Part shown: piece after piece, positions 18,842 through 23,876 of the stretch
Numbering within the stretch: position 1 is the first letter of the stretch
How the letters are laid out: every line of letters starts with the position of its first letter
Source: Escherichia coli
GTDB taxonomy: Bacteria > Pseudomonadota > Gammaproteobacteria > Enterobacterales > Enterobacteriaceae
Assembly: GCF_002854065.1 (NCBI RefSeq)
Contig: NZ_CP024147.1
Length of the DNA stretch: 64,000 nt
Reading direction: 5' to 3' (one strand)
Notes under the pieces: model-generated
What the model was told of the DNA's origin: nothing
The model's database searches: none
The model's input: the letters and a program-made list of their open reading frames with translations, nothing else
Translations under genes and position numbers: made by a program

Positions 18842-18917
<76 letters not shown>

Positions 18918-18956
18918 ACGATGCGTTTACGTACCAAATTTGCTGGGTGCAAAATT

Positions 18957-19032
<76 letters not shown>

Positions 19033-19613: not shown

Positions 19614-20006
19614 ATGAAAAGATTACGCAATAAAATGACCACCGAAGAACTGGCTGAATGCCTCGGTGTGGCTAAACAAACTGTTAACCGTTGGATCAGA
19701 GAAAAAGGCTGGAAAACGGAAAAATTTCCCGGCGTGAAAGGCGGTCGTGCCAGACTTATTCTGGTCGATACGCAAGTTTGCGAGTTTATTCAGAACACGC
19801 CAGCCTTCCATAACACACCGATGCTTCTGGAAGCCGAAGAACCCCTTGCCGAATACGCACCGGGGATTCGCACTCCTGCTTATCGGCAAATCATAAGCGC
19901 AATAGACAACATGACTCACAGTGAGCAGGAAAAAGTTGCGCAATTTTTGTCACGCGAAGGAATTCGTAATTTCCTTGCTCGTCTCGACATAGATGAATCA
20001 GCTTGA
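19614..20006 (+). CDS. yfeD: YfeD, small HTH DNA-binding protein
   Basis: 130 aa (ELAECLGVAKQTVNRWIREKGW), tandem paralog of yfeC. Confidence 0.85.
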   Translation: MKRLRNKMTTEELAECLGVAKQTVNRWIREKGWKTEKFPGVKGGRARLILVDTQVCEFIQNTPAFHNTPMLLEAEEPLAEYAPGIRTPAYRQIISAIDNMTHSEQEKVAQFLSREGIRNFLARLDIDESA

Positions 20007-21754
20007 CATCCTCCACGCCCTGAATGACGAGGATCCCTGCTACGTTCAGGCTGTCGCCTGAATCATTTCGGTGGGTTCCTGCTTCAACGAGTGGCCTGAC
20101 TGCACCATCTCTCCACAGGCAAGAACGGCGTGCCCCGCCGCTAAAATGTTACGAGCGCCGTTTACATCGGCGTTCGCTGTATATCCACATACCTGGCATC
20201 TGAATTTACTTTGTGACAGGCGATTTTCTTTCGCTGTATGACCACAGCACGCGCAACGCTGGCTTGTGTACGCTGGCGGAACAGCAAGCACCTGACCGCC
20301 TCGCCAGAGCTGCTTGTACTCAAGCTGGCGGCGCATTTCATACCAGCCCTGATCCAGTATCGAACGGTTTAAACCTGATTTTGCCCGGACATTGCGCCCC
20401 GGCTGGCTGACCGTACCCGCTGCTGACTTTGACATGTTGCTGACCTTCAAATCCTCAATGACTATCATTGCGTGGTTTTTGCTGACGGTCGTTGTGACTT
20501 TGTGAAGGTAGTCTCTGCGGATATTTGCGGTACAGGAATGCAGTCGCTGTATTTTGCGTTTCTGCTTCTGCCAGTTATTGCTGAATTTGACCTTGCGGCT
20601 TAACTGTCGCTGAAGTCTCGCCAGCTTCTTCTGGTTTTTCTGAAAACTGTTTACAGGCTCAAAGACTGTGCCATCTGACAGCGTGGCGAGTTTAGCCACG
20701 CCAGCATCCAGTCCGACCATTGATGCTGAAGGGTGAACCGGAGTTGATACTTCACTTTCTGTCTGAATACTGATGTACCACTTACCGCAGGACTGGCTGA
20801 CAGTGACATTTTTCACAACACCCGTGACCTGACGGCTGTTCCGGTAGCGCATCCAGCCAAGTTTCGGCAGAAAAATACGGCTGTTTTCCTGATCGAGCTT
20901 AACGCCCTGCGGGTAGCGGAATGCATCATTCTGTCCCCGCTTTTTGAATCGGGGAAAAGCAGCCCGCTTCCGGAAGAAGTTTTTGTAAGCCCGCTCAAGG
21001 TCTTTCAGTGACTGTTGCAATGGCTGTGAGGGCGAATCTTTAAGCCATTGCGTTTCAGTGGCATTTTTCCACTCAACCAGCCAGGAAGCCATTTTCCCGT
21101 AAGGGATGTATTTATTACCGGCCTCATGATTCTCATTCTGACGTGCCAGAGCACGATTGAAAACGAAACGACATGCGCCTGCGAAGCGCCTCATTTCACG
21201 CTCCTGTTGACCAGCGGGTCTTAACTGGAATTTAAATGCCTGTAGTCGTTTCACAGGCCAAATGATACTTTGGTCTATGAATAAAGAAACCGATATCCGA
21301 CGGGGAAGGCATTGTGTTTTCCTGATGCATGTTCATCTGGTCTTTGTCACCAGATACCGACGTCAGATTTTTGACTATGACGCGACAGAAAAACTACGCA
21401 CTTACTTTTCAAATGTATGTGCTGATTTTGAAGCTGAACTGGTTGAAATGGATGGCGAACCAGATCACGTCCATTTGTTAATTAACTATCCTCCCAAACT
21501 GGCGATATCCAGTCTGGTAAACAGCCTCAAAGGCGTATCGGGTAGGTTACTGCGACGAGATCGACCAGATATTGCAGTCAGGTATTACTACAAAGGCGTT
21601 TTGTGGAGTCCTGGCTATTTTGCCAGTAGCTGCGGAGGTGCGCCAATATCCGTCATCCGCCAATACATTGAACAACAGCAAACACCTGGTCAGGTGGAAA
21701 ACCGCGCCTTATATCCCCGCCCTGAAGGACGGGGTTTTACGGCGCACCGGATAA
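20007..21754 (-). mobile_element. IS200/IS605-family insertion sequence (IS605-type divergent tnpA/tnpB; possibly IS609-like); boundaries approximate
   Basis: Divergent Y1/HUH tnpA and tnpB fill the yfeD-gltX gap; an 18-nt related motif (CGCCCTGAA-T/G-GACG-A/G-GG) occurs in the same orientation at both ends, as expected for IS200/IS605 subterminal hairpins; gltX terminator lies immediately outside. Confidence 0.7.
20046..21254 (-). CDS. tnpB: TnpB (OrfB) RuvC-like RNA-guided endonuclease family protein
   Basis: 402 aa, GTG start; RuvC-I GLDAGV, Ruv[11 protein letters not shown], zinc finger CACCGH...CQVCG, Ruv[14 protein letters not shown] all present. Confidence 0.85.
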
Positions 21755-21804
21755 ATAAAAAACGGCAGGGGTATCTCTCCTGCCGTTTATCTTTTATGCG
21801 CTAA
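21277..21804 (+). CDS. tnpA: IS200/IS605 TnpA (Y1 HUH transposase), C-terminally extended into flanking DNA
   Basis: HVHLVFVTRYRR (HUH motif) and catalytic-Tyr region VIRQYIEQQ; the ORF has no stop inside the element and reads through the gltX terminator to 21804. Confidence 0.7.
   Translation: MNKETDIRRGRHCVFLMHVHLVFVTRYRRQIFDYDATEKLRTYFSNVCADFEAELVEMDGEPDHVHLLINYPPKLAISSLVNSLKGVSGRLLRRDRPDIAVRYYYKGVLWSPGYFASSCGGAPISVIRQYIEQQQTPGQVENRALYPRPEGRGFTAHRINKKRQGYLSCRLSFMR
21755..21787 (-). terminator. gltX rho-independent terminator
   Basis: On minus strand AAACGGCAGG-AGAGATACC-CCTGCCGTTTTTT just downstream of the gltX stop. Confidence 0.7.
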
Positions 21805-23478: not shown

Positions 23479-23554
23479 GGGTGATTAGCTCAGCTGGGAG
23501 AGCACCTCCCTTACAAGGAGGGGGTCGGCGGTTCGATCCCGTCATCACCCACCA
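23479..23554 (+). tRNA. valU: tRNA-Val (UAC)
   Basis: GGGTGATTAGCTCAGCTGGGAGAGCACCTCCCTTACAAGGAGGGGGTCGGCGGTTCGATCCCGTCATCACCCACCA. Confidence 0.95.
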
Positions 23555-23598
23555 ACTGCTTTATGTAGTCTCCGCCGTGTAGCAAGAAATTGAGAAGT

Positions 23599-23674
23599 GG
23601 GTGATTAGCTCAGCTGGGAGAGCACCTCCCTTACAAGGAGGGGGTCGGCGGTTCGATCCCGTCATCACCCACCA
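23599..23674 (+). tRNA. valX: tRNA-Val (UAC)
   Basis: Identical copy of valU. Confidence 0.95.
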
Positions 23675-23720
23675 CTTTCTCACCAGCTAAATTTCTTGTA
23701 AAAATGTGAAGTACCGAAGT

Positions 23721-23796
23721 GGGTGATTAGCTCAGCTGGGAGAGCACCTCCCTTACAAGGAGGGGGTCGGCGGTTCGATCCCGTCATCACCCACCA
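23721..23796 (+). tRNA. valY: tRNA-Val (UAC)
   Basis: Identical copy of valU. Confidence 0.95.
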
Positions 23797-23800
23797 CTTC

Positions 23801-23876
23801 GGGTCGTTAGCTCAGTTGGTAGAGCAGTTGACTTTTAATCAATTGGTCGCAGGTTCGAATCCTGCACGACCCACCA
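23801..23876 (+). tRNA. lysV: tRNA-Lys (UUU)
   Basis: GGGTCGTTAGCTCAGTTGGTAGAGCAGTTGACTTTTAATCAATTGGTCGCAGGTTCGAATCCTGCACGACCCACCA, 4 nt after valY. Confidence 0.95.

Follow-up and report, generated by a model that had tools for sequence, protein, structure and literature searches.

A predicted TnpB guide RNA at the right end of an IS609-type element in the yfeD-gltX interval of Escherichia coli

The guide RNA model of TnpB has been experimentally established for the insertion sequence (IS) ISDra2 of Deinococcus radiodurans (PMC8612924), whose RNA consists of a 116-nt scaffold, with the UUUA tetraloop of stem 4 at −20 to −17, followed by a 16-nt guide (PMC10097598). The homing model has been established by experiment for elements of Geobacillus stearothermophilus (Gst) (Meers preprint, 10.1101/2023.03.14.532601), and RAGATH-18, said to be found together with TnpB of IS607 alone, is the core of an IS607 TnpB guide RNA solved by cryo-electron microscopy (cryo-EM) (PMC11061315). 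We have analyzed a 64-kb stretch of Escherichia coli DNA (contig NZ_CP024147.1; the window), in which the yfeC-yfeD/gltX interval, at ∼19.2 to 23.2 kb, carries an inserted IS200/IS605-family element with a tnpB gene. We predict that the minus strand of the window from 20141 to 19987 encodes the guide RNA of this IS609-type TnpB nuclease, a reading that we consider very probable. The anatomy, boundaries and conservation of the region and the intact nuclease gene are evident from the DNA itself. The principal features are as follows.

20003 to 21750, minus strand: IS609-type IS200/IS605 element, 1748 bp; its top strand (tnpB sense) is the minus strand of the window
20046 to 21254, minus strand: tnpB (insQ-type), 402 amino acids, a complete open reading frame (ORF) with its stop codon at 20046 to 20048
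20003 to 20141, minus strand: predicted guide RNA scaffold (omega RNA, or right-end element RNA [reRNA]), 139 nt, delimited by covariance model, covariation and synonymous constraint
19987 to 20002, minus strand: predicted 16-nt guide, 5'-GCUGAUUCAUCUAUGU-3', positioned from the boundary; a guide of 20 nt would reach 19983
21751 to 21755, minus strand: target (transposon-adjacent) motif 5'-TTTAT, with a TTAY core, adjoining the left end

Structure and conservation of the predicted scaffold

The scaffold is made up of the last 96 nt of the tnpB coding sequence (20141 to 20046) and the 43-nt right end, and it finishes exactly at 20003. An initial annotation of this DNA had proposed an omega RNA locus at 20007 to 20250 whose scaffold overlaps the tnpB coding sequence and runs through the right end, the stop codons of tnpB (20046 to 20048) and yfeD (20004 to 20006) being only 39 bp apart. 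The gene coordinates bear out this gap, 96 of the 139 nt do overlap the coding sequence, and the scaffold does extend to the element boundary. The scaffold also lies inside the proposed locus save for its last 4 nt, but it starts at ∼20141, not 20250. The boundary had been placed between the two stop codons, which proved incorrect, as the empty site puts it 4 bp further out, at 20003.

Six structural elements, all on the minus strand, make up the predicted scaffold from its 5' end to the boundary.

20125 to 20141, minus strand: stem 1, a hairpin of 6 bp capped by a GGRCA loop; it lies within tnpB coding sequence (from covariation)
20078 to 20119, minus strand: stem 2, with an invariant outer helix (CCUGU/GCAGG), a GGA/UGAA internal loop and a variable inner hairpin, similar to the kink-turn module of RAGATH-18
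Between stem 2 and the closing helix, minus strand: invariant junction GAACCCACCGAA (from the anatomy)
20036 to 20071, minus strand: 2-bp closing helix (CC/GG) and long stem 3 with a variable tip, across the tnpB stop codon (from covariation)
20012 to 20033, minus strand: stem 4, which is the subterminal hairpin of the right end and has the loop UUCA
20003 to 20011, minus strand: invariant single-stranded tail GGAUGUCAA, which ends at the TCAA cleavage site

Stem 4 doubles as the DNA hairpin recognized by TnpA.

Because a protein homologue search returned only near-identical E. coli copies, which are useless for covariation, relatives were collected by a scan of one genome per species. This gave a comparison set of 80 related loci from different species, ranging from Enterobacterales to Burkholderiales, with 58 to 94% TnpB identity. 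All intact, readable right ends finish in GGAGGATGTCAA, with one-base variants in a few loci, and similarity stops right after it; the flanking DNA beyond is unrelated between loci, and GGAGGATGTCAA is found once in the window. This is the arrangement expected of an omega RNA, with a scaffold that stops at the boundary and a next ∼16 nt of site-specific flank.

The four-stem structure was drawn by hand from the alignment and tested separately, because RNAalifold, run on the raw alignment, found it only in part owing to indels at the stem tips. Compensatory (both-side) changes occur in 27 of its 38 pairs: 4 of 6 in stem 1 (columns 25-39, 27-37, 28-36 and 29-35 of alignment A1, the last having the highest mutual information of the whole alignment), 6 of 7 in the inner helix of stem 2, all 10 in stem 3 and 7 of 9 in stem 4. 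Under this structure, 90.8% of cells are paired, versus 38 to 52% when partners are slid by 1 to 3 columns, and the covariation score is 0.32, versus ≤0.12 in the slid controls; none of 500 shuffles reached the observed values. An unsupervised ranking by mutual information recovered the identical helices and added one pair to stem 1. Two hallmarks of an omega RNA, namely, a scaffold at the tnpB 3' end and a secondary structure supported by covariation, are present here.

The initial annotation had suggested a covariance model search and RNA folding as checks. A covariance model (R1) was built from 27 relatives, with the window and its two closest relatives (L006 and L007) left out. Its sole full-length match in the window is at 20003 to 20141 on the minus strand (144 bits; E, ∼4e-37; model positions 1 to 142 of 142), in agreement with the proposal; the only other match is a faint echo at the left-end hairpin (21715 to 21734). 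Over 87 fetched loci, R1 gave 84 matches, at most one per locus, each on the same strand as tnpB and at the 3' end of that gene. The loci with no match (L021, L026 and L064) are on contigs that end at, or a few bases from, the end of tnpB. On the window sequence, the hand-drawn structure is close to the minimum free energy (−51.0 versus −51.9 kcal/mol). Single-sequence folding is only weakly better than that of shuffles (z = −1.9) and is uninformative alone.

Constraint on the coding sequence coincides with the scaffold. In sequence pairs sharing an amino acid, with codon identity normalized for degeneracy, synonymous-site identity is 1.5 to 1.7 times the expected value from amino acid 373 to the stop codon (the last ∼30 codons of tnpB; window 20138 to 20046), versus ∼0.8 to 1.1 of expectation over most of the gene. 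The same codon identity test revealed no synonymous constraint just upstream of stem 1.

The tip of stem 4 varies in size among relatives. Many Burkholderiales-type loci have 30 to 40 nt of additional nested stem-loops there (L039, L042, L052, L055, L057, L058, L060, L063, L067, L069, L071, L073, L076, L079, L080 and L083), with no change to the hairpin foot or to the tail GGAGGATGTCAA. In an Alcaligenaceae metagenome-assembled genome, a group II intron in sense orientation (L070:3248-3600; Rfam group-II-D1D4-3, 101 bits, and D1D4-1, 46 bits) splits the scaffold tail after GGAGGAUGU, right before the terminal CAA, i.e., between scaffold and guide. Its position recalls a published conflict of transposon-borne introns with guide RNAs.

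A second conserved stretch lies within tnpB at codons 257 to 262 (20469 to 20486, minus strand), ∼330 nt upstream of the scaffold, where 17 nt (AUC AGC MAA AAC CAC GC) are near invariant. Synonymous positions here are conserved over ∼65 diverged loci (observed/expected ratio, 1.5), and the stretch resembles the invariant single-stranded junction AGCAGGAACCCACCG of the scaffold. It does not represent a conserved promoter. There is a small chance that 20486 to 20469 is a second cis element in the tnpB mRNA, such as a TnpB-binding, processing or autoregulatory site; if so, it would represent an undescribed layer of guide RNA biogenesis.

Element ends, predicted guide and transposon proteins

The ends of the element were defined by comparison with the empty yfeD-gltX site of another E. 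coli strain (L001). The empty site reads ...GACATAGATGAATCAGC/ATAAATAAAAAACGGCAGG... (in short form, GAATCAGC/ATAAATAAAAAAC), and the junctions in the window read ...GAATCAGC/TTGACATCC... and ...GCGCACCGG/ATAAATAAAAAAC..., so the element is, unambiguously and without target duplication, exactly 20003 to 21750. Its top strand terminates in ...GGAGGAUGUCAA (TCAA) at 20003, and the opposite end is preceded by 5'-TTTAT. The terminus of IS608 is likewise TCAA. Matches to other E. coli copies cover exactly the element span, likewise 1748 bp, plus flanking ATAA(A). The Y1 HUH transposase, the subterminal hairpins, the lack of inverted repeats and of target duplication, and the insertion 3' of a fixed motif of 4 to 5 nt are all those of the IS200/IS605 family and the IS609 type. 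Two further features belong to this description.

21715 to 21734, minus strand: left-end subterminal hairpin CCCCGUCCUUCAGGGCGGGG, identified by eye from the sequence, where the model picks up a faint stem 4-like signal (12.7 bits)
21277 to 21804, plus strand: tnpA (Y1 HUH transposase; NCBIfam transpos_IS200), divergent from tnpB

In a census of 5,426 complete E. coli genomes with a 2.4-kb query, in which at least 80% of the query counted as the same insertion, 501 genomes had the yfeD-gltX insertion. The element itself has matches in 5,425 of the 5,426 genomes, with related copies at other sites, including that of K-12, which is annotated as insQ ("RNA-guided endonuclease InsQ/TnpB family protein"). 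The yfeD-gltX site is empty in many E. coli genomes.

The predicted guide, its length of ∼16 nt adopted from ISDra2 (PMC8612924), is antisense to yfeD codons 125 to 130 (D125 to A130). The initial annotation had the guide drawn from the last codons of yfeD, which holds for these codons from 20002 onward but not for the stop codon, which is supplied by the element and so falls outside the guide. The 20 nt in the equivalent position all differ at seven other E. coli insertion sites. As the left-end motif, the five near-identical E. coli copies for which a left end was found have TTTAT (three copies) or CTTAT (two copies), and two diverged copies, one truncated and on a plasmid (L089) and one from a related Escherichia species (L006), have TTAC. 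Enterobacterial relatives have TTTAT or TTTAC, and some distant relatives have TTGAT, as in ISDra2.

The empty allele on this strand is TTTAT/GCTGATTCATCTATGT, exactly a motif followed by a match to the guide, as rejoined flanks should read in an omega RNA system. The predicted TnpB target at the vacated site is TTTAT+GCTGATTCATCTATGTCGAG. In the occupied window, the single match to the guide is preceded by TCAA and not TTAT; self-targeting of the occupied locus was rejected on this basis.

TnpB aligns over its full length with ISDra2 TnpB (8EXA and 8H1J; E, 1e-54) and retains the RuvC D/E/D residues and the CxxC...CxxC cysteines in that alignment. NCBIfam guided_TnpB matches it at 382 bits, and the three expected Pfam domains (HTH_OrfB_IS605, OrfB_IS605 and Cas12f1-like_TNB) are found. 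The nuclease is apparently catalytically intact, and a neighboring TnpB whose RuvC triad and zinc finger are intact is a further attribute of omega RNA loci. An IS609-labelled TnpB was purified in a 2026 screen (PMC12781874), whose main text gives no result for that protein. NCBIfam transpos_IS200 covers TnpA at 144.6 bits over model positions 2 to 126 of 126, and both the HUH motif and the catalytic tyrosine region are present. Within the element, the tnpA ORF meets no stop codon; it passes the left-end hairpin into the flank and ends at 21804, giving 175 amino acids for a model of 126 positions. As the ORF reads beyond the element without an internal stop, the Prokaryotic Genome Annotation Pipeline (PGAP) flags tnpA as incomplete. 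The start codons of tnpA and tnpB are divergent and only 22 nt apart, and each promoter must therefore sit inside the other gene.

If the system works like those of ISDra2 and the Geobacillus elements, the RNA would be cut out of the tnpB transcript, bind TnpB and carry ∼16 nt of flank (GCUGAUUCAUCUAUGU) as guide. Excision by TnpA would rejoin the flanks to 5'-TTTAT/GCTGATTCATCTATGT, and TnpB, as in the same elements, would cut this vacated site (donor joint) in a motif-dependent manner. Recombination with a sister copy or chromosome would then restore the element, again by analogy.

Alternative explanations and neighboring genes

Several points weigh against the interpretation of 20141 to 19987 as a guide RNA gene. 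Some natural TnpBs, e.g., that of Helicobacter pylori IS608, are inactive in assays (10.1101/2023.03.14.532601). The PGAP flag on tnpA suggests that excision may be rare. A scan by mutual information, complemented by inspection by eye, revealed no new long-range Watson-Crick pair that could form a pseudoknot before the guide; since neither the tail GGAUGUCAA nor any candidate partner column varies, covariation is silent on this point. Two of the three scaffold positions that differ between the window copy and K-12-type copies break pairs of stem 4 (non-pairs U.U and A.G). Finally, a scan of the minus strand from 19800 to 21400 gave no sigma-70-like site. This absence and that of constraint 5' of stem 1 are weak negative evidence, which fits processing from the tnpB mRNA; such processing is reported for ISDra2 (PMC10278001). 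The sole transcript evidence is the published report of RNAs over the tnpB 3' end in E. coli K-12 RNA sequencing (PMC4615843), presumably of the orthologous element. We found no literature connecting insQ with a small RNA. A pseudoknot between the stem 3 loop (GACA) and the tail (UGUC), which are complementary in the window, was rejected, as the loop is not conserved. With the exception of the pseudoknot, for which the candidate columns are invariant, the predicted scaffold has every property of a TnpB guide RNA that can be assessed from sequence.

The covariation might instead reflect a right-end signal in single-stranded DNA that serves only TnpA, without a functional RNA. DNA and RNA hairpins are indistinguishable by covariation alone, and stem 4 is indeed a subterminal right-end hairpin resembling that of the left end, where R1 has its weak second match (21715 to 21734). 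However, the constrained and covarying region is 139 nt long and extends 96 nt into coding sequence, far beyond a subterminal hairpin; the invariant helix and internal loop in stem 2 are those of RAGATH-18, which is an RNA module from a TnpB-RNA cryo-EM structure, and the overall layout agrees with that of the ISDra2 RNA. A DNA-only signal is therefore very improbable. That the structure is a 3' untranslated region stabilizer or terminator of the tnpB mRNA, with no guide RNA, is scarcely credible: it would be suited by the position at the gene 3' end and the G+C-rich stem 4, but no U-run follows stem 4, which a terminator scan does not flag, most of the structure lies within coding sequence, and the invariant tail finishes exactly at the transposon boundary.

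A different question is whether the guide RNA gene of this particular copy is a nonfunctional relic, with a weak stem 4, no expression or no active TnpA, so that the guide would be inconsequential. The two non-pairs of stem 4 relative to K-12-type copies and the annotation of tnpA as incomplete are in keeping with decay, and the occurrence of the insertion in 501 of 5,426 genomes suggests a long-fixed site. Decay is nevertheless unlikely, given that tnpB is a complete ORF with its catalytic residues kept, that TnpA, with its HUH motif and catalytic tyrosine region, spans the IS200 model in full, and that the third scaffold difference turns U.G into the better pair U-A in the stem 2 inner helix. 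Further, the stem 4 variant is also found in a copy whose insertion site, between yeaQ and yeaR, is unrelated (L003), and the element must therefore have transposed since the variant arose. A functional guide RNA gene is thus the reading that we prefer.

The host gene that the element abuts is yfeD.

19614 to 20006, plus strand: yfeD, with its stop codon TGA at 20004 to 20006

TTGA, the plus-strand reading of the terminal four bases of the element, provides the third base of the last yfeD codon and the stop codon, so that GCA TAA becomes GCT TGA. The YfeD protein is unaltered, and filled and empty alleles share one protein accession. The stop codon of the host gene is also supplied by the element at ydcO (K-12; L002) and at yedK in another strain (L086). 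On the opposite strand, the target TTAT is ATAA, which includes TAA, and the TCAA end is TTGA, which includes TGA in the identical register; insertion into NNA-TAA therefore leaves the ORF closed and its length unchanged.

In the empty site, the gltX terminator hairpin (21758 to 21795 in the window) follows directly after the yfeD stop codon and probably ends both convergent genes. The insertion puts 1.75 kb between yfeD and this hairpin; yfeD transcripts should now run into the element, antisense to the predicted guide RNA and tnpB, and read-through of tnpB or of the predicted guide RNA is antisense to yfeD. A terminator-like hairpin with a T-rich run at 19938 to 19955 (minus strand), 48 nt past the right end and within the yfeD antisense strand, could be where a read-through guide RNA precursor terminates, or it may be a chance occurrence, as 5 such sites were found versus 1.7 expected. 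Genes for tRNAs (Rfam matches) flank the yfeCD-gltX block, two at 18845 to 19032 (minus strand) and four at 23479 to 23873 (plus strand), and represent ordinary chromosomal context.

Comparison with described TnpB RNAs and elements

The homing biology of TnpB is already established; what is new here is a well-defined scaffold of a known kind of RNA that falls outside the thresholds of Rfam 15. Its significance may be summarized as follows. (i) Almost every E. coli genome has an element with what looks like a complete RNA-guided nuclease system, comprising a defined scaffold, a TTAY motif and guides specific to each site. (ii) With R1, there is a covariance model of a family of RNAs missed by Rfam 15. 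(iii) In strains with this insertion, the nuclease is predicted to be directed at the empty yfeD-gltX allele; after excision or recombination, this could bias how the insertion is inherited.

The predicted RNA shares with that of ISDra2 (PMC8612924, PMC10097598) its origin from the tnpB 3' end and the right end, a guide that is the flank past the boundary, and a target motif that is the TnpA target 5' of the left end. Both scaffolds are just over 100 nt long (139 nt in the window and 116 nt in ISDra2), and in both a short helix encloses a long stem 3 whose tip is variable, and the tetraloop of stem 4, of the UUYA type, precedes the guide by ∼20 nt. By position, the closing helix and stem 3 correspond to stem 2 and stems 3a/3b of ISDra2 (PMC10097598). 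Unlike in ISDra2, the motif is TTAY rather than TTGAT, tnpA is divergent from tnpB rather than codirectional and overlapping, and there are an extra covarying 5' hairpin (stem 1) and a RAGATH-18-like internal loop in stem 2. For the pseudoknot before the guide, conserved in ISDra2 and in Cas12 guide RNAs, the candidate columns of the alignment are invariant.

Stem 2, in its outer helix and internal loop, matches the consensus of RAGATH-18 (CCUGUGGAG...CG.UGAAGCAGGAA), the reRNA module of IS607 TnpB (ISFba1; PMC11061315; RF03064), almost base for base, and in both cases it is an internal module of a TnpB guide scaffold on the tnpB strand. The module therefore extends beyond IS607 elements, which suggests that IS605- and IS607-type guide RNAs may share a common core. 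The inner hairpin is 17 nt here versus 44 nt in RAGATH-18, the transposase is of the Y1 IS200 type versus an IS607 serine recombinase, and the module lies within the tnpB coding sequence (20078 to 20119), unlike the ISFba1 RNA, which is wholly outside coding sequence. The Rfam model RF03064 gives 29.5 bits on the window, spanning model ends 1 to 71, below its gathering score of 44.9.

The sense transcripts over tnpB 3' ends (sotRNAs) and HgcC (RF00062; PMC4615843) are similar in position and have a right-end hairpin with a UUCA tetraloop, as does stem 4 of the window. Unlike the RNA predicted here, HgcC is archaeal, and sotRNAs were described before guide function was known. RF00062 matches 19992 to 20113 (minus strand) weakly, at 16 bits (E, 0.22), below its gathering score of 50. 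The TnpB RNA models named in Meers 2023, RF03065 and RF02998, have no match at an E value of ≤10 in 19950 to 20400, and none of 20 relatives searched against Rfam reaches any gathering score. Membership in RAGATH-18, HgcC or another Rfam 15 family was rejected on score.

Two elements are comparable in their behavior or descent. In G. stearothermophilus (10.1101/2023.03.14.532601), as here, TnpA and TnpB share an AT-rich motif, and the same donor joint logic applies: the vacated site is a motif plus a guide match, here literally the empty yfeD-gltX allele. The TnpB clade and the RNA are different, and for IS609 retention would be a prediction. The second is the IS609 remnant of E. coli K-12 (insQ, next to ydcO), a 1748-bp element with 97.9% identical DNA, whose scaffold scores 147 bits with R1. 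It occupies another site and hence has another guide (UAUCGGUUUCUGUCAG...), its tnpA has an internal stop, and, in contrast to the window copy, its stem 4 is fully paired.

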